Shown here in pieces: positions 5,626 to 22,852 of a DNA stretch of 64,000 nucleotides. The notes beneath the pieces are model-generated. The model was not told where the DNA came from, searched no databases, and saw only the letters and a program-made list of their open reading frames with translations. Each line of letters opens with the position of its first letter. Position 1 is the stretch's first letter. Both the position numbers and the translations under genes were made by a program. Source of the DNA: an uncultured Steroidobacteraceae bacterium (GTDB lineage: Bacteria; Pseudomonadota; Gammaproteobacteria; Steroidobacterales; Steroidobacteraceae); contig CAYVZE010000003.1 of NCBI GenBank assembly GCA_964455685.1, forward strand, positions 119 to 64,118. The letters are read 5' to 3'.

Positions 5626-7401
5626 TCAGACCAGTTCCGACGGCACGTCTGCCACGCTGCCGGCACCGCCCTTGACGATGCGCGCCAGCCCCAGCACTTC
5701 CGGCAGCACCTGCTCGGCGTAGAACCGGCAGCTCACCAGCTTGCCGCGGTAGAACTCGTCGTCGCCCTTGCCCAGCGAGGCCTCGGCCACCGCCGCGGCG
5801 CGCGCCATCAGCGCACCGCTGATCGCCAGCCCGCACAGCTTCAGGTACGGCACCGACACCGACAGCACCAGCTGCGGCCGCTCCGCCTGCATCTGCAGCA
5901 GCGCATCGGTGGTGTCGCGCAGCGTGGTGACGGCCTCGGTGGCCGCGTTGCGCGCCGCCTTGGCTTCGGGCCCCAGCGAACGCAGGCCGTTGAGCTCCGC
6001 CAGCAGGTCGCGCAGCAGCGCCTGCATGGTCGCGCCGCGGTCACGGCCCAGCTTGCGGTTCACCAGGTCATTGGACTGGATGCCCGTGGTGCCCTCGTAG
6101 ATCGAGGCGATGCGCACGTCGCGCAATGGCTGCGCCGCGCCGGTTTCCTCCACGTAGCCCATGCCGCCGTGGATCTGCATGCCCAGCGAGGTCACCTCGA
6201 AGCCGGTCTCGGTGCACCAGCCCTTGACGATGGGGATCATCAGCTCGGCGCGCGCCAGCGCCGCCTTGCGCGCCGCCTCGTCGGGCAGGCGCGTGCCCTT
6301 GTCCAGCTCCAGCGCCGCGCAGGCGCACAGCAGGCGCATGGCCTCGGTGCGCGACCTCATGCCCAGCAGCATGCGGCGTACGTCGGGGTGTTCGATGATG
6401 GCCACCGGCGAGGGCTTGCCCTCGACGCGGCCCTGCAGGCGCGTGCGCGCCCACTCGCGCGCCCCCTGCAGCGCGCGCTCGGACTGCGCCAGTCCCTGCG
6501 CGCCCACCGACAGGCGCGCGGCGTTCATCATGATGAACATGAACGACAGTCCCGCGTTCGGCGGACCCAGCAGGTATCCGATCGCGCCTTCCTTCTCGCC
6601 GAAGCTCATCACGCACGTCGGGCTGGCGTGGATGCCCATCTTGTGCTCGATGGAGATGCAGCGCACATCGTTGCGCTCGCCCAGCGAACCGTCGGCGTTG
6701 ACCAGGAACTTCGGCACCAGGAACAACGAGATGCCCTTGGTGCCTTCCGGCGCGCCGTCGATGCGCGCCAGTACCAGGTGGATGATGTTCTCCGACAGGT
6801 CGTGGTCGCCGTAGGTGATGAAGATCTTCTGGCCGTACAGGCGGTAGCGGTCACCATCGGCCACTGCGCGCGTGCGCAGCAGGCCGAGGTCGGAACCGGC
6901 CTGCGGCTCGGTGAGGTTCATCGTGCCCATCCACTCGCCGCTGACCAGCTTGGGCAGGTACAGCGCCTTCTGCGCCTCGGTGGCCGAGGCTTCAATGGCC
7001 TCCACCGCGCCGCGCGCCAGCGAAGTGCCCAGGAAGAAGGCCATGTTCGAGGCGAACATGATCTCCTCGAAGGCCGAGTTCAGCAGCTGCGGCATGCCCT
7101 GGCCGCCCAGCTCCTGCGGGACGGCCAGCTGCGTCCAGCCAGCCTCGGCGTACGCCCGGTAGGCCTCGGGGAAGCCCTTGGGCGTGAAGACCCCCTCGGG
7201 GGTCCAGCGGGCGCCTTCCCGGTCACCGCTGGCATTGAGGGGTGCGAGCACGGTTTCGCCGAACTTCGCCGCCTCTTCGAGGATGTTGTCGGCAAGTTCC
7301 GCCGAATAGCCAATATCCTCGTAGAGCGGGCCGAGTGCGGCCTCGCTGCCGAGGATTTCGTGGAGGACGAAGCGCAGTTCGCGAAGGGGAGCCTGGTACA
7401 T
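5626..7401 (-). CDS. large acyl-CoA dehydrogenase (about 590 aa class with extra C-terminal domain)
   Basis: The first M of the listed ORF is a TTG. The ATG at 7401..7399 shares one nt with the upstream LysR stop (TGATG). Typical ACAD strings: GTMNLTEPQAGSDL, YGQKIFITYGDHD, IHGGMGYVEETG, RIASIYEGTTGIQ. Confidence 0.85.
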   Translation of the reverse strand: MYQAPLRELRFVLHEILGSEAALGPLYEDIGYSAELADNILEEAAKFGETVLAPLNASGDREGARWTPEGVFTPKGFPEAYRAYAEAGWTQLAVPQELGGQGMPQLLNSAFEEIMFASNMAFFLGTSLARGAVEAIEASATEAQKALYLPKLVSGEWMGTMNLTEPQAGSDLGLLRTRAVADGDRYRLYGQKIFITYGDHDLSENIIHLVLARIDGAPEGTKGISLFLVPKFLVNADGSLGERNDVRCISIEHKMGIHASPTCVMSFGEKEGAIGYLLGPPNAGLSFMFIMMNAARLSVGAQGLAQSERALQGAREWARTRLQGRVEGKPSPVAIIEHPDVRRMLLGMRSRTEAMRLLCACAALELDKGTRLPDEAARKAALARAELMIPIVKGWCTETGFEVTSLGMQIHGGMGYVEETGAAQPLRDVRIASIYEGTTGIQSNDLVNRKLGRDRGATMQALLRDLLAELNGLRSLGPEAKAARNAATEAVTTLRDTTDALLQMQAERPQLVLSVSVPYLKLCGLAISGALMARAAAVAEASLGKGDDEFYRGKLVSCRFYAEQVLPEVLGLARIVKGGAGSVADVPSELV

Positions 7402-15145: not shown

Positions 15146-15755
15146 CCGGATTCTGTTACTCGCGCTGTTGTCGATCGGGGTGGCCGCCGCCGGCGCTCCG
15201 CAGGAACGCACCCTGCTCGTCTTCGGCGACAGCCTCAGCGCGGCCTACGGCCTGAAGGCCGAGGAAGGCTGGGTGACGCAATTGCAGAACCGGCTCCGCC
15301 AGCAAGGTTACGTTTACAAGGTGGTGAATGCCAGCGTCAGCGGCGAGACCACCGCCGGCGGGCGCAACCGCCTTGCCCGCGCGCTCGATACCCACCAGCC
15401 CGCGATCGTGATCCTGGAGCTCGGCGCCAATGACGGCCTGCGCGGCCTGCCCGTGCCGGCCGCGCGCGAGAACCTCGGCGCGATGATCCGCGCAGCGCAG
15501 GAACGCAAGGCCAGGGTGCTGCTGGTCGGCATCCAGATGCCGCCCAACTACGGGCCGCGTTATGCCGAGAGCTTCGCAGCCATGTACCCGCAGCTCGCGC
15601 AGGAACACAAGGTGCCGCTGGTGCCCTTCCTGCTGGAGGGCGTGGCGCTTGATGACCGGCTGATGCAGGCCGACGGATTGCATCCCAATGCAGCGGGCCA
15701 GCCCCGGCTGCTCGAAAACGTCTGGGCACACCTGCTGCCCTTGCTGGAGCGATGA
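15135..15755 (+). CDS. tesA: SGNH arylesterase / acyl-CoA thioesterase I / lysophospholipase L1 (TesA-like)
   Basis: GDSLSAAYG (Ser block I), SGETTAGG, LGANDGLRG, DGLHPN (block V). The start is placed at TTG 15135 just before the signal-like LRCIRILLLALLSIGVAAA and is uncertain. It overlaps the divergent ybbA start by about 11 nt. Confidence 0.75.
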   Translation: MRCIRILLLALLSIGVAAAGAPQERTLLVFGDSLSAAYGLKAEEGWVTQLQNRLRQQGYVYKVVNASVSGETTAGGRNRLARALDTHQPAIVILELGANDGLRGLPVPAARENLGAMIRAAQERKARVLLVGIQMPPNYGPRYAESFAAMYPQLAQEHKVPLVPFLLEGVALDDRLMQADGLHPNAAGQPRLLENVWAHLLPLLER

Positions 15756-17428
15756 TCATGAGCGTGGACCGTATCTGGCTGAAGTCCTATCCGCCGGAGG
15801 TTCCCCACGACATCGATCCGGGCCAGTACTCCTCGCTGGCCGAGCTGATCTGCGAAGCGCTGCGGAAGCACGCTGACCAGCGCGCCTATGTGCTGCTCGG
15901 CCACGCGGTGACCTTCCGCGAGGTCGATCGCCTGTCGGCCGCGTTTGCCGCCTGGCTCCAGTCGAAGGGACTGAAGAAGGGCGACCGCATCGCCCTGATG
16001 CTGCCGAACGTGCTGCAGTATCCGGTTGCCATGTTCGGCGCCCAGCGTGCCGGCCTCGTGGTCGTCAACACCAATCCCCTGTATACCGCGGACGAACTGC
16101 GCCACCAGCTGCAGGACTCCGGCGCCGCCGCCATCCTGGTGCTGGAGAACTTCGCCCATACCGTGCAGGAGGTGCTCGCCGACACGCAGCTCAAGCACGT
16201 GCTCGTCACCGGCGTCGGCGACCTGATACCCGGCGCCAAGGGGTGGGCCGTCAACTTCGTGCTGCGCCATGTGAAGCGGGAAGTCCGGCCGTGGAACATC
16301 CCGCAGGCCGTGCGATTCAAGGCGGTCCTGGACGAATTCGACGGCCGCATGCCCGCCCCAGTCCAGCTCGGCCACTCCGACCTCGCGTTCCTGCAGTACA
16401 CCGGCGGCACCACCGGCGTGGCCAAGGGCGCCATGCTGTCGCACGGGAACATGGTCGCCAACGTGCTGCAGTCCGAGGCCTGGTTCAGCCAGATCGCCCT
16501 CGACAACGCCACCTTCTATTTCGCGCTGCCGCTCTACCACATCTTCTCGCTGACCGCGAACTGCCTGCTCAGCCTGCGGCGCGGCGCCGTCGGCATCCTC
16601 GTGCCCAATCCGCGCGACTTCCCCGGCTTCGTGAAGCTGCTGCAGAAGGAACCGCCCAACTGCTTCCTCGGCGTGAACACCCTGTTCAATGCGCTGATGA
16701 ATACGCCCGGCTTCGAGCGCATTGATTTCAGCAAGCTCGTCGCCACCGTCGGAGGCGGCATGGCCGTGCAGGCCGCCGTGGCCAGGCGCTGGCTGGAGCT
16801 GACTGGATGCCCGCTCGCCCAGGGCTGGGGCCTCACCGAGACCTCGCCCGTGGTTGCCGTCTGCCGCCTGCGGGACCGGGAGTTCACCGGCGCCGTCGGC
16901 CTGCCGGTGCCCTCCACCGAGGTCTCGATCCGCGATGACGACGGGAAGGACGTGGGACTGAACACCGCGGGCGAGATCTGCGTCCGCGGCCCCCAGGTCA
17001 TGCAGGGCTACTGGAACCGTCCTGACGAGACCGCAAAGGTCATGCTGCCCGACGGCTGGCTCCGCACCGGCGACATCGGCCGCATGGACGAGGCCGGGTT
17101 CGTCTACATCGAGGATCGCAAGAAGGACATGATCACCGTGTCCGGCTTCAAGGTGTACCCGAACGAGATCGAGGACGTCGCAGCCAGGCATCCCGGGGTA
17201 TTCGAGGCCGCCGCCATCGGCGTGCCGGACGAGCGCTCGGGCGAGGTCGTAGCGCTTTACGTGGTCAGGAAGGACCCCTCACTGACGGAGGAAGACCTGA
17301 TCGCTTACATGCGGAAGCATGTGACTTCTTACAAGGTTCCCCGGCAAGTGCATTTCAGGAAGGAATTGCCGAAGACGAATGTGGGGAAGATTTTGCGGCG
17401 GGCGTTGAGGGATGCGCCGAATTCGTAA
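15752..17428 (+). CDS. fadD: long-chain fatty acid-CoA ligase
   Basis: Collinear with E. coli FadD as recalled: WLKSYPPEVPHDIDP, MLPNVLQYPVAMFGAQRAGLVVVNTNPLYT, YTGGTTGVAKGAMLSH, GWGLTETSP, GWLRTGDI, KVYPNEIE, GKILRR. The ATG overlaps the tesA stop. Confidence 0.9.
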   Translation: MIMSVDRIWLKSYPPEVPHDIDPGQYSSLAELICEALRKHADQRAYVLLGHAVTFREVDRLSAAFAAWLQSKGLKKGDRIALMLPNVLQYPVAMFGAQRAGLVVVNTNPLYTADELRHQLQDSGAAAILVLENFAHTVQEVLADTQLKHVLVTGVGDLIPGAKGWAVNFVLRHVKREVRPWNIPQAVRFKAVLDEFDGRMPAPVQLGHSDLAFLQYTGGTTGVAKGAMLSHGNMVANVLQSEAWFSQIALDNATFYFALPLYHIFSLTANCLLSLRRGAVGILVPNPRDFPGFVKLLQKEPPNCFLGVNTLFNALMNTPGFERIDFSKLVATVGGGMAVQAAVARRWLELTGCPLAQGWGLTETSPVVAVCRLRDREFTGAVGLPVPSTEVSIRDDDGKDVGLNTAGEICVRGPQVMQGYWNRPDETAKVMLPDGWLRTGDIGRMDEAGFVYIEDRKKDMITVSGFKVYPNEIEDVAARHPGVFEAAAIGVPDERSGEVVALYVVRKDPSLTEEDLIAYMRKHVTSYKVPRQVHFRKELPKTNVGKILRRALRDAPNS

Positions 17429-18235
17429 TCAATCCCGAAGATCGCTTCCCTCAGATCCCCTCTTCCGCTTGGCTCCAGGAAAGCCTCCGACTCCAAGACC
17501 ATCCCCCAAGTAAGCAATCACCTGAACACCAGCAAGAACACCACGACCCTGCTTAGCTCTTGAGCTCTTTCTTGGGCGCATTCTCCGCTGCTCCATCCAA
17601 TCATCGACCACCTGCAAGTACGAATGCCCCTGAGCCTTCGTGAAATTGCAGAAGGCATCAATCTCATCCCTTTGGAGATCAGAAACGTAGGCAAATCGCT
17701 CTATCAGAGTTCCTTTTCCTGCACCCAGCGAGGAGTTCCGCCGGATAGTTCGGATCAGCCTATTAACCGACTTAACCAAGTGCTCGGCCACAAACTGTCC
17801 TTTATGTGAAATCATGCCGGCATCATTTGCCGGCAAGAAGCGGCCATCCGACTGCTTCTTAATAAGGCCGGAAGAAATCAGAAAACTCTCGACATTCGCA
17901 ACATTAACTTGAGGATCAAGGCTCCGGATCATCTCCCTGATGCTTTCCTTACCTCTTCTCAGGTGAAGTGGCTTCGGTCGCGCCACATCAGCATCCAGAT
18001 ACTTCTCATCCCGGTGCCAGAGGCGCATCAAATCTGCCGACAAATCTCCGCATTGCAGGTACGCCCCACTCTTCGCCTTTCGCGACCCTCTCCTTTTTCT
18101 TCTCAGATCACTCAGGCATGTATCAACGCCTGCCTGAATGTCCTCTATGGTCGCACCAGCTTCCATGAGAACTTCGAACACCCCTTCCAGCAGTGAAGCC
18201 TGCAGCCGTCTTGGAATTCTCTTCGCCCCTGACAT
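17429..18235 (-). CDS. hypothetical protein, island paralogue A (HTH/winged-helix-like family)
   Basis: ATG 18235, 19 nt after the stop of paralogue B. Shares collinear motifs with B and C: LMEAGAT near residue 25, LWHRDEKYL..P..LHL, and a winged-helix-like VESFLISSGLIKKQSDGRFLP. Lower-G+C DNA. Confidence 0.55.
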   Translation of the reverse strand: MSGAKRIPRRLQASLLEGVFEVLMEAGATIEDIQAGVDTCLSDLRRKRRGSRKAKSGAYLQCGDLSADLMRLWHRDEKYLDADVARPKPLHLRRGKESIREMIRSLDPQVNVANVESFLISSGLIKKQSDGRFLPANDAGMISHKGQFVAEHLVKSVNRLIRTIRRNSSLGAGKGTLIERFAYVSDLQRDEIDAFCNFTKAQGHSYLQVVDDWMEQRRMRPRKSSRAKQGRGVLAGVQVIAYLGDGLGVGGFPGAKRKRGSEGSDLRD

Positions 18236-18254
18236 TCGCGAGTTCCCGTCCGCC

Positions 18255-19052
18255 CTATGATTCTAGTTCTTCAGTAATTAGCACAACGCGCGCACGGGCG
18301 ACCTTGAGTTTCTTGCTCTTCAAGGTTTTAGACCCTCTGGCCGTCGCACACGCCATTTCCCTCACGCCGGAAAGAAATACCCTCAATCCATCCTCTGCTC
18401 TCTTATGCAAGAGTACCTTTCCGACGTCGGAAGGCGCTGGGAAACTGACTTCGAGATTGATTGCCTTCAGCGGCACTGGGGCGCTTGCGCACTCGGCGTT
18501 GTCCAGCAACCTTGCCAGAGACCTCGATATCAGGTTGAGGCGATATTCCGCCTTCCCCAAAGACTTCCCTGTAGCCAGCGAGACGTAGCCACCGCGGACC
18601 GTGACCAAACCATGGCGCTGCAGCTCCCGAAGGATCGAGCGCGGTGGAACGTCTCCGCCATATCTCCGCACCAATGCCGGAAAATTCCTTCCTTGCCCAC
18701 CGAGGCGAAGCCTCCTAGGCAAAGAGGAGGCTTTCAAGAACGCTGCATCCGTTGTCCAACCTTCTATGAGTTGGTCAAGCCGATCTTGCACGGAAATCGG
18801 CATGGCGCGGGCCTGCTTGGCAAACTGCCGCACTTGGACTCTTGTGAGCCCGGTCATTGCGGCAACAGCGGACTGATTAATTCTCTTGTTACTGAATCTC
18901 GCTGCACGAGATGCGGCGAGGAAGTAGCCCATTCGAACAATGCGCTCAAATCGCCTAGAACTGACCCCAGCTTCAATGAGATACCGGGCGAACTCCGTCA
19001 TGAATTGGACAGCGTCGGATTCGATACCTGGCTTCTTTCTCCTGAAAGTCAC
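18255..19052 (-). CDS. hypothetical protein, island paralogue B (HTH/winged-helix-like family)
   Basis: GTG 19052. The N-terminal length before LIEAGVS matches paralogues A and C. HTH-like SAVAAMTGLTRVQVRQF, then GWTTDAAFL..LPRRLRL, then winged-helix-like ILRELQRHGLVTVRGGYVSL. Confidence 0.55.
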   Translation of the reverse strand: MTFRRKKPGIESDAVQFMTEFARYLIEAGVSSRRFERIVRMGYFLAASRAARFSNKRINQSAVAAMTGLTRVQVRQFAKQARAMPISVQDRLDQLIEGWTTDAAFLKASSLPRRLRLGGQGRNFPALVRRYGGDVPPRSILRELQRHGLVTVRGGYVSLATGKSLGKAEYRLNLISRSLARLLDNAECASAPVPLKAINLEVSFPAPSDVGKVLLHKRAEDGLRVFLSGVREMACATARGSKTLKSKKLKVARARVVLITEELES

Positions 19053-19164
19053 AACACTTGGCTAGGCTCTCTCTGCTTAACGCAGCGACGCACATTGTCC
19101 CGCGCTCATGTCACCGCACTGCAACCTGTCTTTCTCCTGATTCTGACAAGAAAGACAAATCGAG

Positions 19165-19200
19165 ACACAAAAACAAAAGCGCCGCCCCGGGGGGCGGCGC
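19165..19200 (-). terminator. intrinsic terminator downstream of the small repeat-protein gene
   Basis: GC hairpin gcgccgcc/ggcggcgc (19179..19200). On the minus strand it is followed by TTTTGTTTTTGTGT (19165..19178). It lies 36 nt after the stop codon at 19237. Confidence 0.65.
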
Positions 19201-19236
19201 CTTTGTCAAACTCACTACTGAGCGAATTCCAGCCGA

Positions 19237-19545
19237 TTAAGGAGTCGGCCGGCCAGTGCCAATCTGGCGCTTCTGCTTCACCCCAGTGCCGATCTGGCGC
19301 TTCTGCTTCACGCCAGTACCGATCTGGCGCTTCTGCTTCACGCCAGTACCGATCTGGCGCTTCTGCTTCGTACCAGTGCCGATCTGGCGCAGAGACGTAG
19401 CGGTACCGAACGAGGAAACCGCCGAAGACTGCACAGAGGTTTCGAACAGGCCCTCCTGCTTCTCGCCAGCGACAGCGCTGACGCTGAGCGCGGAGGCAGC
19501 AATCAAAGAACCAGCGATGGCCAAAATCGAGAATATACGTGACAT
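19237..19545 (-). CDS. small secreted protein with tandem decapeptide repeats (QIGTG[VT]KQKR, 4.5 copies)
   Basis: ATG 19545 preceded by GGGAG (9-nt spacer). Sec-type signal peptide MSRIFSILAIAGSLIAASALSVSA-VAG. Has its own promoter-like element and terminator. Same orientation as the neighbours. Confidence 0.6.
   Translation of the reverse strand: MSRIFSILAIAGSLIAASALSVSAVAGEKQEGLFETSVQSSAVSSFGTATSLRQIGTGTKQKRQIGTGVKQKRQIGTGVKQKRQIGTGVKQKRQIGTGRPTP
19254..19390. repeat. tandem 30-bp direct repeat, 4.5 near-identical copies (cagtRccRatctggcgcttctgcttcRYRc)
   Basis: Read directly: units start at 19254, 19284, 19314 and 19344, with a partial unit at 19374. There are 1-4 substitutions per unit. 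The units are contiguous with no spacers. Confidence 0.95.
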
Positions 19546-19595
19546 AAGTTGAAACTCCCACACACCGTTCTTCTGGTCCCGGATGTCGCCGGTCC

Positions 19596-19627
19596 GTGAC
19601 GCGCGTCACATAAGGGACGGCTTATGT
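19596..19627. promoter_or_regulatory. two overlapping inverted repeats in the leader of the small gene (candidate operators or RNA hairpins)
   Basis: Perfect 14-bp palindrome GTGACGCGCGTCAC (19596..19609). ACATAAG-N6-CTTATGT (19608..19627). Both lie between the predicted -10 and the start codon. Confidence 0.4.
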
Positions 19628-19638
19628 AACGTTTCCCG

Positions 19639-19667
19639 AAAATATGTGAGCAGGATCACTATGTCAA
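19639..19667 (-). promoter_or_regulatory. sigma70-like promoter for the small repeat-protein gene
   Basis: The minus strand reads TTGACA (19667..19662), 17 nt, then TATTTT (19644..19639). It lies about 95 nt upstream of ATG 19545. Confidence 0.45.
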
Positions 19668-19691
19668 GGAGATATGTAAAGGCGGATTCTG

Positions 19692-20597
19692 TCAGGCCGG
19701 GGCCCGTGGCTTTGAAATCCAGGCCTTGGGCTGATCCTCCGGGCGTTTTTCGATATACGAAGAAAGGGGGGAGATGTCGTAGTCTTCAGCAATGTGGTGG
19801 AAGGCCGTGAGGCCCGTTGTCACTCGCTTGCCCGGCTCCGTCCAATGGACCTTGTTGCTGCTGATCCAGTCGTCAATGTCGTTGAGAAGCTTCTGGACCT
19901 TGTCTTTCAGGAGACCCTCAAATTCCGGGAGGACATACTCAGGAAGCTCATCCTCAATCACCGATCGCTGAAGCCTCTTTTGCCCAGTTTCAGACCTGAT
20001 GTTGTGCAGAATGGTGTTTGCGAGGTCGGTGATTGCGGAGCCGAAATATTCCAAAGCTTGGGGCGTTAGAACGTCCGTGAAAACCATTGTTCGCGCAGTA
20101 GCGCGATAGTGTTTTGGGCCGACGGGCTTAACCACTTCCCATTCGATCATGTCGCGCAACACAGCCTTGGGATTTGCGGTCGGATCGGCGCGAAATATGA
20201 GGGTGCTGAGGTTCTTACCTGGCGTTTCTTCCAAATCGAGCTCAAGCGGCAATCCATAAGGGCCAATGTAGTCGGGGTCTGTGCACCAAAGGAACAAGAC
20301 TTCCGAAACAACGGCCGCATTGGTCGGTTCCGGCGGCGCCAACAAACTCTGGTCATCTATAAACCTGTTCACATCCGCCAACGGAACCTCGGTGTAATCC
20401 GAAACCATCGCCCGCGTCAGCGGCCCCTGGTGCCCGCGGATCCCGTCCCTCACTGCGGCCTCCACGTAGGCGCCCTTCAGCACCTCCCGGAACTCCTGGT
20501 ACGAGACTCCCGCGCGCAGCAGGATGCGGATCATCGGCTTCAGGATCTTCCGGAACGAGAAGATCAGCTGCGCACGGGCGGCATCGCGTAGACGCAT
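19692..20597 (-). CDS. hypothetical protein, island paralogue C (HTH/winged-helix-like family; DUF6502-like from memory, unverified)
   Basis: ATG 20597, 3 nt after the dgt stop, with AGGAG inside the last dgt codons. LLRAGVSYQEFREVLKGAYVEAA, LWCTDPDYI..LPLELDL, and winged-helix-like VLRDMIEWEVVKPVGPKHYRA. The first about 66 codons are high-G+C; the rest is low-G+C. Confidence 0.6.
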   Translation of the reverse strand: MRLRDAARAQLIFSFRKILKPMIRILLRAGVSYQEFREVLKGAYVEAAVRDGIRGHQGPLTRAMVSDYTEVPLADVNRFIDDQSLLAPPEPTNAAVVSEVLFLWCTDPDYIGPYGLPLELDLEETPGKNLSTLIFRADPTANPKAVLRDMIEWEVVKPVGPKHYRATARTMVFTDVLTPQALEYFGSAITDLANTILHNIRSETGQKRLQRSVIEDELPEYVLPEFEGLLKDKVQKLLNDIDDWISSNKVHWTEPGKRVTTGLTAFHHIAEDYDISPLSSYIEKRPEDQPKAWISKPRAPA

Positions 20598-20600
20598 GTT

Positions 20601-21752
20601 TCAACTCCTGTGGAAAGGCAGGAACAGCCGCTCGTGCTCGCTGATGGCGTAGCGGTCCGTCATGCCGGCCACGTAATCGGCCACCGCACGGGCGCGGCCG
20701 GCGGGACCGTGTCGGGACTCCAGCCGCTGCGCGGCGGCGCGGTGCTCGTCGGGCATCAGCAGGAGATCCTCCATGAATGCATTGAACAGGTCGGTGACCA
20801 CGGTGCGCGCCTTGCTGGTCATGCGGCGCACGCGGTAGTGGCGGTACAGGTGCTCGCGCAGGAAGGCCTTGAGTTCCAGGTGCTCGGCGTAGGCGGCCTC
20901 GCTCATGCGGATCAGGGGTTCGCCATGGGCACGCACGGCATCGGCATCGGCCGGGCCAGCCTCCTCGAGCAGCTTGCGGCTGTTGTCGATCAGGTCGACG
21001 ACCATGCCGTTGATCATCCGGCGCACCACCTCGTGTACCAGCCGCCGCCCGGCAAGGCCGGGATGCAGCTTTTCCACCGCGTGCAGCTGGCGCCCGAATA
21101 CGGGCACGTCGCGCAGCTGGGCGATGTCCAGCAAGCCGGCGCGCAGGCCGTCGTCCACGTCGTGGTTGTTGTAGGCGATCTCGTCGGCGAGGTTGGAGAG
21201 CTGGGCCTCCAGGCTCGGCTGGCGCCGCTCGATGAAGCGCCGGCCGAGCTCGCCGAGCTGCCGCGCATTGTTCAGCGAACAGTGTTTGAGGATGCCCTCG
21301 CGGCACTCGAAGGTGAGGTTGAGGCCGGGAAACGTGGCATAGCGCTCCTCGAGCTCATCCACCACGCGCAGCGACTGGAGGTTGTGCTCGAACCCGCCGT
21401 AGTCGCGCATGCAGGCATTGAGGGCGTCCTGGCCAGCATGACCGAAGGGCGTGTGCCCGAGGTCATGGGCCAGGCAGATGGCCTCGGTCAGCACTTCGTT
21501 GAGGCCGAGCGCCACGGCGACGGAGCGGCCGATCTGGGCCACTTCCATCGAGTGGGTGAGGCGCGTGCGGTACATGTCGCCTTCGTGGTTGACGAAGACC
21601 TGCGTCTTGTAGACGAGCCGGCGGAACGCGCCGGAATGCACGATGCGGTCGCGGTCGCGCTGGTACTCGCTGCGATAGCGCGGCGGCTCTTCCGGATACC
21701 TGCGCCCCCTGGACCGCTCGTCGTGCGATGCGTACCGGGCCAGCATGGTCAT
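20601..21752 (-). CDS. dgt: deoxyguanosinetriphosphate triphosphohydrolase-like HD-domain protein
   Basis: ATG 21752 ([17 protein letters not shown]) overlaps the aroB stop. [52 protein letters not shown]. Confidence 0.85.
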
Positions 21753-22852
21753 CAGCCGAAGTGGGCCGCCAGGGTGGATTCGAGCGCGTCGTCGGCGTAG
21801 TCGGCGGTGAAGCGCGCTGCGCCAAGCCGCTCCAGGAGCACCAGGCGGATGCGGCCGGATTTCACCTTCTTGTCCACGCGCATGTAGTCCAGCGCCCTTG
21901 CGACGCCAAAGCGCGGCGGATCCACCGGCAGGCCGATGCGCACCAGCAGGTCGCGAACGCGGCGCACGTCCTCCTGCCGGAGCAGGCCCAGGCGTGCGGA
22001 CATGTCCGCGGCGATGACCATGCCGGCGGCCACGGCCTCGCCGTGCAGCCACTCGGTGTAGCCGGTGGCGGTCTCGATGGCATGGCCGAAGGTGTGGCCG
22101 AGGTTCAGCAGCGCACGGTCGCCTGACTCGCGCTCATCGCGGCGCACCACGTCGGCCTTCAGCTCGCAGGAACGGTAGATGGCATGCGAAAGGGCCTCGT
22201 CGTCCAGCTGCAGCAGCCGCTCGACATTGGCCTCGATCCACTCCAGGAAGGCCAGGTCGAAGATCAGGCCGTACTTGACCACCTCGGCCAGGCCGGCGCG
22301 CAGCTCGCGCGGTGGCAGGGTGCGCAGGGTGGCGGTGTCGGCAACCACCGCGCAGGGCTGGTGGAACGCGCCGATCATGTTCTTGCCGCCGGGGTGGTTC
22401 ACGCCGGTCTTGCCACCCACGGAGGAGTCCACCTGGGCCAGCAGCGTGGTCGGCAGCTGCGCGAAGGCCACGCCGCGCTGGTAGCAGGCGGCCGCGAAGC
22501 CGGCCAGGTCGCCCACCACGCCACCGCCCAGGGCCACGAACACGCAGTCGCGGCCGAAACGGTTGGCGATGGCAACGTCCAGCACCTGCTGCATGGACTC
22601 CAGCGTCTTGTACTGCTCGCCGTCGGGCAGGCGGACGTCGACCACGCGGCGGTCGGCCAGTGCGTCCTTCACCTGCCTGGCGTACAGCGGCGCCACGGTG
22701 GTGTTGCTTACCAGCAGCACGTCGCGCGCGGGCAGCAGGCGCGCCAGCTGGCTGCCGTCGGCAAGCAGGCCGGGGCCGATCAGGATGGGATAGGAGCGTT
22801 CGCCCAGGGAGACGTTGAGATTCAGCACGCGGGAATTATAGGCCGCGCTCAC
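21752..22852 (-). CDS. aroB: 3-dehydroquinate synthase
   Basis: GTG 22852 overlaps the aroK stop. [70 protein letters not shown]. The 570-aa listed ORF is an out-of-frame upstream extension across aroK. Confidence 0.9.

Follow-up and report, generated by a model that had tools for sequence, protein, structure and literature searches.

What does a short gene built largely of tandem repeats encode, and which part of its repeat unit matters? The question is raised by a minus-strand open reading frame (ORF) at positions 19237 to 19545 of a 64,000-nt stretch of contig CAYVZE010000003.1, from an uncultured Steroidobacteraceae bacterium (the whole of this stretch is referred to here as the window). 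A preliminary description of the sequence had reported a monocistronic gene whose product combines a Sec signal with a series of decapeptides, each ending in a K-R pair, and had proposed two functions for the product: a precursor from which cationic decapeptides are released by cleavage at K-R, or a polycationic protein that binds an anionic polymer. The comparative analysis described below indicates that the ORF is a true gene, equipped with a promoter and a terminator of its own, and that its product is a member of an undescribed family, present mainly in Steroidobacteraceae-like Gammaproteobacteria. The functional unit of the protein is best explained as the conserved core of the repeat, centred on I-G-T-G, and not as the four-residue spacer (KQKR in this case). 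Judged by gene neighbourhoods in several phyla, the element that travels with genes for DUF6502 proteins is this short motif in an exported protein.

The ORF extends from an ATG at 19545 to a TAA at 19239-19237, and its 102-aa product reads MSRIFSILAIAGSLIAASALSVSAVAGEKQEG...SLR(QIGTGTKQKR)(QIGTGVKQKR)x3 QIGTGRPTP, exactly as first described, with 4.5 decapeptide units encoded by near-identical 30-bp DNA units. Tandem Repeats Finder returned a single array at 19252-19390 (period 30, 4.6 copies, 92% matches, 0 indels, score 229). Nearly all differences among the units are synonymous (GGC/GGT/GGG, ATC/ATT), together with one ACG/GTG codon that gives the T/V difference. No second array, nor a gene with a single copy of the motif, was found elsewhere in the 64-kb window. 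The identical protein is encoded on four short contigs from metagenomes or metagenome-assembled genomes (MAGs), and a 99% variant on a fifth, with the same neighbours on all of them. The parts of the gene and its predicted expression signals are the following:

19237..19545, minus strand: coding sequence of the 102-aa IGTG-repeat protein, stop codon included (ORF, five contigs, codon-position pattern).
19468..19545, minus strand: predicted signal peptide, residues 1-26, with a basic n-region (MSR), a hydrophobic core and A-V-A at positions -3/-1 (alignment of 11 species).
19387..19467, minus strand: residues 27-53, a short acidic start (GEKQEG) followed by a Ser/Thr/Ala-rich linker (pattern recurring in class A homologues, defined below).
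19252..19390, minus strand: tandem array of 30 bp x 4.6, (QIGTG[T/V]KQKR)x4 + QIGTG (Tandem Repeats Finder and unit listing).
19639..19667, minus strand: predicted sigma-70-like promoter, TTGACA-17-TATTTT (aligned across 13 species-level loci).
19555..19559, minus strand: predicted Shine-Dalgarno site, GGGAG, 9 nt before the ATG (conserved GGAG).
19168..19207, minus strand: predicted intrinsic terminator, a G+C-rich hairpin followed by a T run (16-bp stem with 10 G-C pairs, detected together with the T run at 19207-19172).

The three expression signals had been noted in the preliminary description, and comparison with other species strengthens each of them. Taken by itself the promoter match is at chance level (one found, 1.3 expected in 4 kb). 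In an alignment of the flanks of 13 species-level loci, TTGACA-17/18-TAnnTT was kept in all 13, as was the terminator hairpin CGCCGCC..GGCGGCG followed by Ts, the G+C-rich core of which begins 36 nt 3′ of the stop codon in the window. A GGAG Shine-Dalgarno site was present in 12 of the 13 loci, the remaining one (L028) having GGGAA instead. In the part of the coding sequence that precedes the array, the substitutions counted among eight orthologues were distributed over codon positions 1, 2 and 3 as 573:463:882, and those between loci L012 and L018 as 12:0:18, a pattern that indicates purifying selection on the minus-strand reading frame. The prospect that the plus-strand frame might turn out to be the conserved one was thus not borne out. 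In comparisons of species in which the codons differ, only the minus-strand frame gives a signal peptide and a motif that are conserved. Two plus-strand ORFs, at 19256-19552 (98 aa) and 18405-19400 (331 aa), were set aside as shadows, of the repeat and of the antisense strand of a downstream gene (DUF6502 paralogue 2, see below). Because the expression signals are conserved, the substitutions follow the codon positions and the differences between units are synonymous, the minus-strand frame is taken to be the one translated.

A search with the single sequence against 5.8 billion proteins gave one 99%-identical cluster as its sole match. The family was reached via synteny with DUF6502, and afterwards with profiles. 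Beside relatives of the window's DUF6502 gene (93-42% protein identity), orthologues of 102, 111, 121, 128, 144, 148, 158 and 191 aa were found at the same position and on the same strand; in each, an N-terminus resembling a signal peptide is followed by a short linker rich in Ser and Thr and by an array of decapeptides. A profile was built from an alignment, named A3, consisting of the window protein as first sequence plus database members. An exhaustive search with it against 1.84 billion representative proteins detected 148 proteins at E ≤ 1e-3, of which 49 reached E ≤ 1e-10; the near-identical cluster of the window protein itself (P0001) scored E = 5.7e-31. The homologues therefore keep the signal peptide and the repeats of the gene first described, and the proposed search of related genomes for the repeat motif did recover arrays of varying copy number. 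Motif arrays were tallied in 103 cases. Forty-nine of these belong to class A, which includes the window protein and in which the array is preceded by a signal peptide and a linker only (about 70-215 aa, mostly 75-125 aa). In the other 54, class B, a domain of about 150 aa lies between the signal peptide and a C-terminal array (about 165-385 aa, mostly 270-385 aa). The N-terminal domain of class B is DUF5666: model PF18914 scored above its gathering threshold in three of the ten proteins tested (P0134, P0137 and P0154). Scans with Pfam and NCBIfam found no model, DUF5666 included, that matched the array or the window protein. A match of one class B protein to Pfam PF25296, 'Decapeptide repeat region' (E = 0.093; 13 bits against a cut-off of 45), was dismissed as noise. 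Among the papers searched, none dealt with DUF6502 or with the motif, and DUF5666 was mentioned only incidentally. Where taxonomy was given, the hosts were Steroidobacteraceae or unclassified Gammaproteobacteria MAGs. The features that place the window protein in the family are its A-x-A signal peptide, its C-terminal array of cores that fit (G/A/S/Q)-(I/V)-(I/V/G)-G-(T/S)-G, with spacers that vary between members, and the location of its gene immediately downstream of a same-strand DUF6502 gene.

The repeats of this family conserve one part of the unit. Close orthologues have the units QIGTGQKATR, QIGTGVKGSR, QIGTGGKGGR, QIGTGATGSR and IVGTGATGNK, while in distant ones the units read GIIGTGADGE, SIIGTGEKAK, GSIGTGIKAQ, GIVGTGDVNSS, GIIGTGIVRPG, LGINGTGRDQGG and GSIGTGTA. 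Across the 103 arrays the core is (G/A/S)-(I/V)-(I/V)-G-(T/S)-G, represented in the window by R-Q-I-G-T-G. The I/V-G-T/S-G part persists throughout the family while the spacers differ in sequence, charge and length; a period of 10 is the commonest, and periods of 5, 8, 9, 11, 12 and 13 were also seen. At the borders between units, the residue before the core can be G, A, S, K, Q or Y. Dibasic sites in at least half of the units were found in only four of the 103 arrays. By net charge per unit, 55 arrays are neutral, 32 mildly basic, 11 acidic and five strongly basic (P0124, P0126, P0139, P0144 and P0177); already in the nearest orthologues of the window protein this charge falls to +2 or +1. 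On these counts the K-R junctions and the cationic character are lineage-specific, and the window protein is an outlier within its own family. Since both functions initially proposed rest on the K-R pair and on the cationic character, both fail when the family as a whole is considered.

The association with DUF6502 extends well beyond the Steroidobacteraceae. A scan of one genome per species identified 34 DUF6502 loci. In those for which downstream sequence was available and could be aligned, the next gene on the same strand always contained an array, whether in class A or in class B form. At the three loci that are most distant (two from Myxococcota and one from Pseudomonadales), the next gene encodes a lipoprotein with one GG(I/V)(G/T)G(S/T)G just past the lipobox; the body of this lipoprotein is made up of six DUF5666 domains in two of the loci and of a beta-propeller in the third. 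When the distant DUF6502 sequences were used as seeds for a metagenome scan, 582 relatives were obtained, from which 80 loci were kept. Of the 63 loci that could be evaluated, 43 had a downstream lipoprotein with G-x-x-G-(S/T)-G (mostly GGGIGGTG) located 8-20 residues after the lipobox Cys, while none of the 298 background ORFs in these loci (150 aa or longer) had this tether motif. Near-variants or failures of ORF calling account for several of the 20 misses. The bodies of the metagenome lipoproteins were mostly DUF5666, and otherwise DUF4382 plus CarboxypepD_reg. The DUF6502 and lipoprotein genes overlap start-to-stop, and the genes flanking them vary from locus to locus (L055-L134; for example, L126 3501-5818 and L080 3522-5341). 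Together they form a translationally coupled two-gene operon, a module that is undescribed. Steroidobacteraceae appear to have amplified the motif into arrays, to judge from the six residues that arrays and tethers share and from their common linkage to DUF6502.

The number of units changes rapidly. Arrays of 8, 10 and 11 copies were found in one lineage and of 6 and 7 copies in another, with flanks that are 100% identical over 950 + 800 bp; a third pair of contigs, with flanks 99.7-99.8% identical, has 2 and 8 copies. In the window lineage the number is constant, 4.5 copies on five contigs, and among Steroidobacteraceae as a whole it ranges from 3 to 28. The units are near-identical inside a lineage and different between lineages, which is the pattern of concerted evolution, so that the recent expansion or concerted evolution suspected from the near-identical units of the window agrees with the comparative data. 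We propose that array length shifts in in-frame steps of 30 bp, by slippage or unequal recombination. Runs of N or apparent frameshifts were observed in several arrays (L023 at about 6250-6620, L031 at about 6590-6720, L024, L030, L032, L041 and L042); the alternative frame of the frameshifted MAG arrays reads 'RHRRHW...' or 'ASTERVCTAR...'. Since tandem repeats of 24-36 bp are often misassembled, copy numbers obtained from short reads are to be read with caution.

The N-terminal region indicates where the product would go. Outside the repeats, the alignment of 11 species has no invariant residues other than A24 and A26, and for this reason cleavage after A-V-A, with the mature protein starting at G27, is favoured over cleavage after SVSA. 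Neither a Cys/lipobox nor a twin-arginine motif is present in the N-terminus of the 102-aa protein, and a crude test for a hydrophobic core was positive for 85 of 103 family members. Class A homologues show A-x-A, then (G/A)(D/E)(K/R) and then a stretch rich in Ser and Thr. Export of the product through the Sec pathway, with cleavage by signal peptidase I, is thus likely. The predicted mature protein of 76 residues has an isoelectric point of 11.75, with 15 K+R against 3 D+E and a net charge of about +12. An AlphaFold2 model of the window protein (alignment A3, 12 sequences) had a predicted local distance difference test score (pLDDT) of 49.5 and a predicted template modelling score of 0.11. 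Its sole secondary structure was the signal-peptide helix, with none in the mature part, which is accordingly predicted to be disordered.

The mechanism that we prefer, tentatively, is the multivalent display of the IGTG-centred motif by a disordered envelope protein. After Sec export and cleavage by signal peptidase I, a mature protein of about 76 residues, composed of the Ser/Thr-rich linker and the decapeptide array, would present many copies of a short linear motif in the periplasm or cell envelope, where an envelope factor would bind or modify it. In-frame slippage or recombination in 30-bp steps would alter the length of the array, and concerted evolution would keep its units alike. Several points weigh against this proposal. 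No binding partner or modifying enzyme was identified, so that recognition of the motif, on which the proposal turns, is a deduction, and expression of the gene and of its protein is deduced from sequence comparison. The disorder call uses a shallow alignment of 12 sequences, and a fold that forms only on oligomerisation could be missed. The resemblance between the array core (G-I-I-G-T-G) and the tether (G-I-G-G-T-G) amounts to six residues, with no alignable homology between the proteins, so that their common descent is argued from the linkage of both to DUF6502, and it is unclear how a cytoplasmic DUF6502 protein would be mechanistically related to a motif in an exported protein. The model of DUF6502 is poor (pLDDT 58) and its structural matches are all non-significant. 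Finally, the differences in copy number were seen in short-read assemblies, where tandem repeats of 30 bp can be collapsed, and N-runs interrupt the array at some loci. Even so, the alternatives considered next all rank below multivalent display.

The one that survives best, while still unlikely, is that the units fold: a strand formed by the hydrophobic pair (I/V-I/V) and a turn formed by G-T-G could stack into a beta-solenoid, a beta-roll or an amyloid-like fibre, the length of which would be set by the copy number and which would serve as material of the envelope or matrix. In its favour, a periodicity of 10 (or 5, or 20), with a hydrophobic pair and a glycine turn in each unit, is dominant; a weak match to designed pentapeptide-repeat solenoids was obtained with one class B array (E = 2.2e-4), and the acidic variants (G-x-D-G-E) are somewhat RTX-like. 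However, no structure appears in the AlphaFold2 model, no Pfam pentapeptide or RTX model matches any member even at E ≤ 10, and the family profile finds nothing in the PDB. The alignment of the class B array with the designed solenoids, named 'beta1', shares almost only glycines. Periods of 8, 9, 11, 12 and 13 are hard to fit to a single geometry, the Gln and Lys residues of the window units would presumably occupy inward-facing positions of the pentapeptide-repeat register, and no dedicated fibre-secretion genes lie nearby. The specific case of a pentapeptide-repeat or RTX solenoid was rejected, there being no profile match and no predicted fold, and the single PDB match being driven by the glycine periodicity.

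Still less probable is the multi-copy precursor, in which a protease of the envelope or outside the cell would cut between units to release a short signal or antimicrobial peptide in multiple copies; in an extended form, the peptide would be sensed by DUF6502. The window protein taken by itself invites this interpretation, with a signal peptide, identical tandem units and K-R at every junction. The conserved core with lineage-specific flanks recalls pherotype variation, and the linkage to three putative cytoplasmic DNA-binding proteins is tight and ancient. Moreover, the best fold match of DUF6502, though non-significant, is HetR, a regulator controlled by RGSGR peptides. Across the family this support is lost: a dibasic junction was found in only four of the 103 arrays plus the window lineage, with no other conserved cleavage site at the unit borders, and no protease, peptide transporter or modifying enzyme was present in any neighbourhood examined. 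In class B the array is attached to DUF5666, and in other phyla the motif is a single-copy lipoprotein tether, an odd setting for a released signal. The HetR match (E = 0.023, TM 0.22, template modelling score) has no backing from sequence similarity. A broader and decidedly speculative proposal is that the hexapeptide G-(I/V)-(I/V/G)-G-(T/S)-G is a new envelope signal tied to DUF6502, acting either as a tag by which exported proteins are recognised or modified or as a diffusible G-T-G-type peptide that is released from arrays and sensed by DUF6502. If the diffusible-peptide form were true, it would be a Gram-negative counterpart of PatS/PatX-HetR or RNPP-type signalling, with the array as a multi-copy precursor.

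Equally speculative is the second function initially proposed, that the mature protein is a polycation that binds an anionic polymer of the envelope, such as lipopolysaccharide, exopolysaccharide, polyphosphate or extracellular DNA. The 15 K+R against 3 D+E in 76 residues of the window protein agree with it, and the five strongly basic relatives listed above share this character. Charge, however, is not conserved: among the 103 arrays, 55 have neutral units and 11 have acidic ones, such as GIIGTGADGE. Binding of this sort would be at most an added, lineage-specific property and not the function that maintains the family; such a lineage-specific role for the +12 charge of the window protein is conceivable.

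It is very unlikely that the gene is a decaying remnant, left over from a DUF5666 or lipoprotein gene after loss of the domain and kept by repeat dynamics alone, with no function of its own. Class A does resemble class B minus DUF5666, no fold is predicted and the spacers diverge fast. Nevertheless, class A persists in dozens of diverged lineages with its signal peptide, AxA, promoter, Shine-Dalgarno site and terminator conserved, the codon positions bear the mark of purifying selection, and the I-G-T-G core stays invariant while the spacers drift. As to a non-coding DNA repeat, or translation of the opposite strand, the repeat does keep several frames open and the 98- and 331-aa plus-strand ORFs do overlap the array, but these lack start context and are antisense to DUF6502 paralogue 2, whereas only the minus strand yields the conserved signal peptide, motif and expression signals, so that this possibility is already effectively refuted by the comparative data.

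Two further elements were observed in the non-coding sequence on either side of the gene:

19595..19627, minus strand: leader elements, an inverted repeat ACATAAG-N6-CTTATGT (19627-19608) and an overlapping palindrome TGTGA-N6-TCACG (19610-19595) (kept in orthologous loci).
19128..19156, minus strand: inverted repeat GTCTTTCT-N13-AGAAAGAC, between the terminator and DUF6502 paralogue 2 (read from the sequence).

The palindrome at 19610-19595, TGTGACGCGCGTCACG, lies downstream of the putative -10 element, in the conserved leader, some 60 nt long, that separates promoter and Shine-Dalgarno site. It is the only site of the TGTGA-N6-TCACG type in 64 kb, where 0.16 would be expected by chance. The half-sites TGTGA and TCAC are kept even in distant loci, while the N6 centre and the flanks vary. 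The leader RNA did not fold better than shuffled sequence (z = 0.34), and an Rfam scan of the leader found no family near threshold. A structured RNA leader or riboswitch was rejected for these reasons, conserved half-sites around a varying centre having the look of a DNA site. The palindrome is probably a protein-binding DNA site of the CRP/FNR type, to judge from its likeness to TGTGA-N6-TCACA, the consensus of CRP/Clp/FNR-type sites. Of the second inverted repeat, TTTCT...AGAAA and the CTTGC that follows it are conserved in most orthologous loci; it may be an operator or promoter element for the pair formed by DUF6502 paralogues 2 and 3.

The three DUF6502 genes that surround the array gene are as follows:

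19692..20597, minus strand: DUF6502 paralogue 1, 301 aa (Pfam PF20112, E = 2e-19).
18255..19052, minus strand: DUF6502 paralogue 2, 265 aa (PF20112, E = 1.4e-15; position conserved).
17429..18235, minus strand: DUF6502-like paralogue 3, 268 aa, converging on fadD (sub-threshold match to PF20112, E = 1.9e-4).

Paralogue 1 starts 3 nt past the stop codon of dgt, with its AGGAG Shine-Dalgarno site inside dgt, and in its orthologues, which are 93-42% identical to it, the array gene is always the next one downstream. Paralogue 2 is 23% identical to paralogue 1 (E = 1e-7). Paralogue 3 shows a weak similarity to paralogue 1 (E = 0.01), and its orthologue in locus L050 scores as DUF6502. The model obtained for DUF6502 is better in residues 50-170 (pLDDT 70-90), which contain helix-turn-helix, winged-helix-like and helix-helix-hairpin elements. 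A Foldseek search of the PDB with DUF6502 gave no significant match; the sub-significant ones were nearly all to transcription factors, with HetR at the top, followed by many TetR, CAP and IclR-type regulators. The DUF6502 proteins are probably cytoplasmic, helix-turn-helix DNA-binding proteins, as the model suggests. A relationship to HetR was rejected in view of the E-value and score given above, the poor model and the lack of sequence support. A profile search against PDB sequences repeatedly aligned residues ~17-66 of paralogue 1 with the fold region of histone H4, ILKPLIRILLRAGVTYEEFREVIKG, below threshold (E = 0.33-2), and a histone-fold-like N-terminus in DUF6502 was rejected as not significant.

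The four-gene block at 17429-20600 has a G+C content of 0.55, against 0.69 for the genome, and a G+C content at third codon positions of 0.54-0.71, against 0.89-0.91 in the neighbouring genes. The gene order is pilMNOPQ-aroK-aroB-dgt-(pyrF)-DUF6502-array gene-DUF6502-DUF6502, followed on the opposite strand by fadD, a GDSL lipase gene and then ABC and FtsX genes; it is kept down to 42% DUF6502 identity. All the relatives examined have the same deficit at the same syntenic position (0.50-0.57 against 0.64-0.69). Since both synteny and G+C deficit are conserved, the block is an old, vertically inherited module. A mobile island or a recent horizontal transfer as the cause of the low G+C content was rejected, every relative having the same backbone and the same deficit. 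The neighbourhoods examined contained no protease, peptide transporter, modification or fibre-secretion gene, the neighbours being a conserved housekeeping backbone. PADLOC and PHROGs models gave no match for the small protein or for the three DUF6502 paralogues, and anti-phage defence or phage origin was rejected on this ground.

The dGTPase ORF upstream of the block (20601-22052) has 483 aa if read from an upstream GTG, against 381-392 aa in its orthologues. Its first 100 residues are an Arg/Pro/Gly-rich read-through typical of high-GC DNA, and the true start is probably near 21750. The enzyme is of the housekeeping and not the anti-phage type, since the NCBIfam equivalog NF002326 scores 603 bits. 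At the other end, a 543-aa minus-strand ORF (15560-17191) is the shadow of a plus-strand gene for a fadD-like acyl-CoA ligase (15752-17428; 558 aa). The latter ends one base before the stop codon of paralogue 3, on the opposite strand, and the two genes converge with no spacer and no recognisable terminator.

The locus offers an entry into two widespread families without known function, DUF6502 and its usual partner DUF5666. What they share is a motif of six residues, borne by exported proteins and coupled genetically to DUF6502 across phyla, and the array proteins, which are small, easily synthesised and multivalent, would be good bait for a factor that recognises it. The arrays also provide a clean case of concerted evolution, in which the core remains constant while spacers and copy number change fast. 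For annotation, the lesson is that the striking dibasic, cationic trait of one sequence was lineage-specific and unfit for inferring function.

Several known systems resemble this one in part. Among them are secreted or surface proteins in which the number of in-frame tandem repeats varies, the streptococcal alpha C protein family being an example. Like these, the array proteins have a signal peptide and near-identical DNA units with a length divisible by three, each lineage has homogenised its units, and copy number varies between otherwise identical strains (a polymorphism seen here in short-read assemblies, the window lineage being constant). Unlike them, the window protein has a unit of only 10 aa, lacks an anchor or sorting signal and a folded repeat domain, and comes from a free-living soil or sediment bacterium and not from a pathogen; its core is, besides, common to single-copy lipoprotein tethers. 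Multi-core precursors delimited by dibasic sites, such as yeast alpha-factor, processed by Kex2, and the fungal ustiloxin-type precursors, also combine a signal peptide with tandem copies of a short peptide, and the window copies each end in K-R. The array family departs from them: its dibasic site is not conserved, no processing or modification genes lie nearby, conservation is confined to the middle part of the unit, and some arrays are fused to DUF5666.

The connection with DUF5666 (PF18914) envelope proteins is direct in class B, where this domain is paired with an array, and in the DUF6502-adjacent DUF5666 lipoproteins, which carry one N-terminal copy of the motif; the window protein lacks the domain, which itself has no known function. 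PatS/PatX and HetR form a peptide-regulator pair of cyanobacteria. As a lead only, the arrangement of a small gene for a G-(S/T)-G-centred peptide beside that of a DNA-binding-like protein of ~300 aa is similar. Here, though, the RG(S/T)GR motif is absent, the match in fold falls short of significance and comes from a poor model, no similarity is seen in sequence, and the motif of the arrays also occurs in large lipoproteins. Pentapeptide-repeat (PF00805) and RTX (PF00353) proteins likewise have short repeats that contain glycine, with a period of 5/10 or of about 9 and one hydrophobic position each. The array family differs from both in the lack of a profile match, of a predicted fold and of a conserved Asp, and in its varying periods; compared with RTX proteins, the window protein has an N-terminal Sec signal instead of a C-terminal type I signal, and its units have a period of 10 and no Asp. 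The kind of object found in the window, a secreted tandem-repeat protein of variable repeat number, is therefore known, while the family, its motif and the linkage of that motif to DUF6502 across phyla are new.

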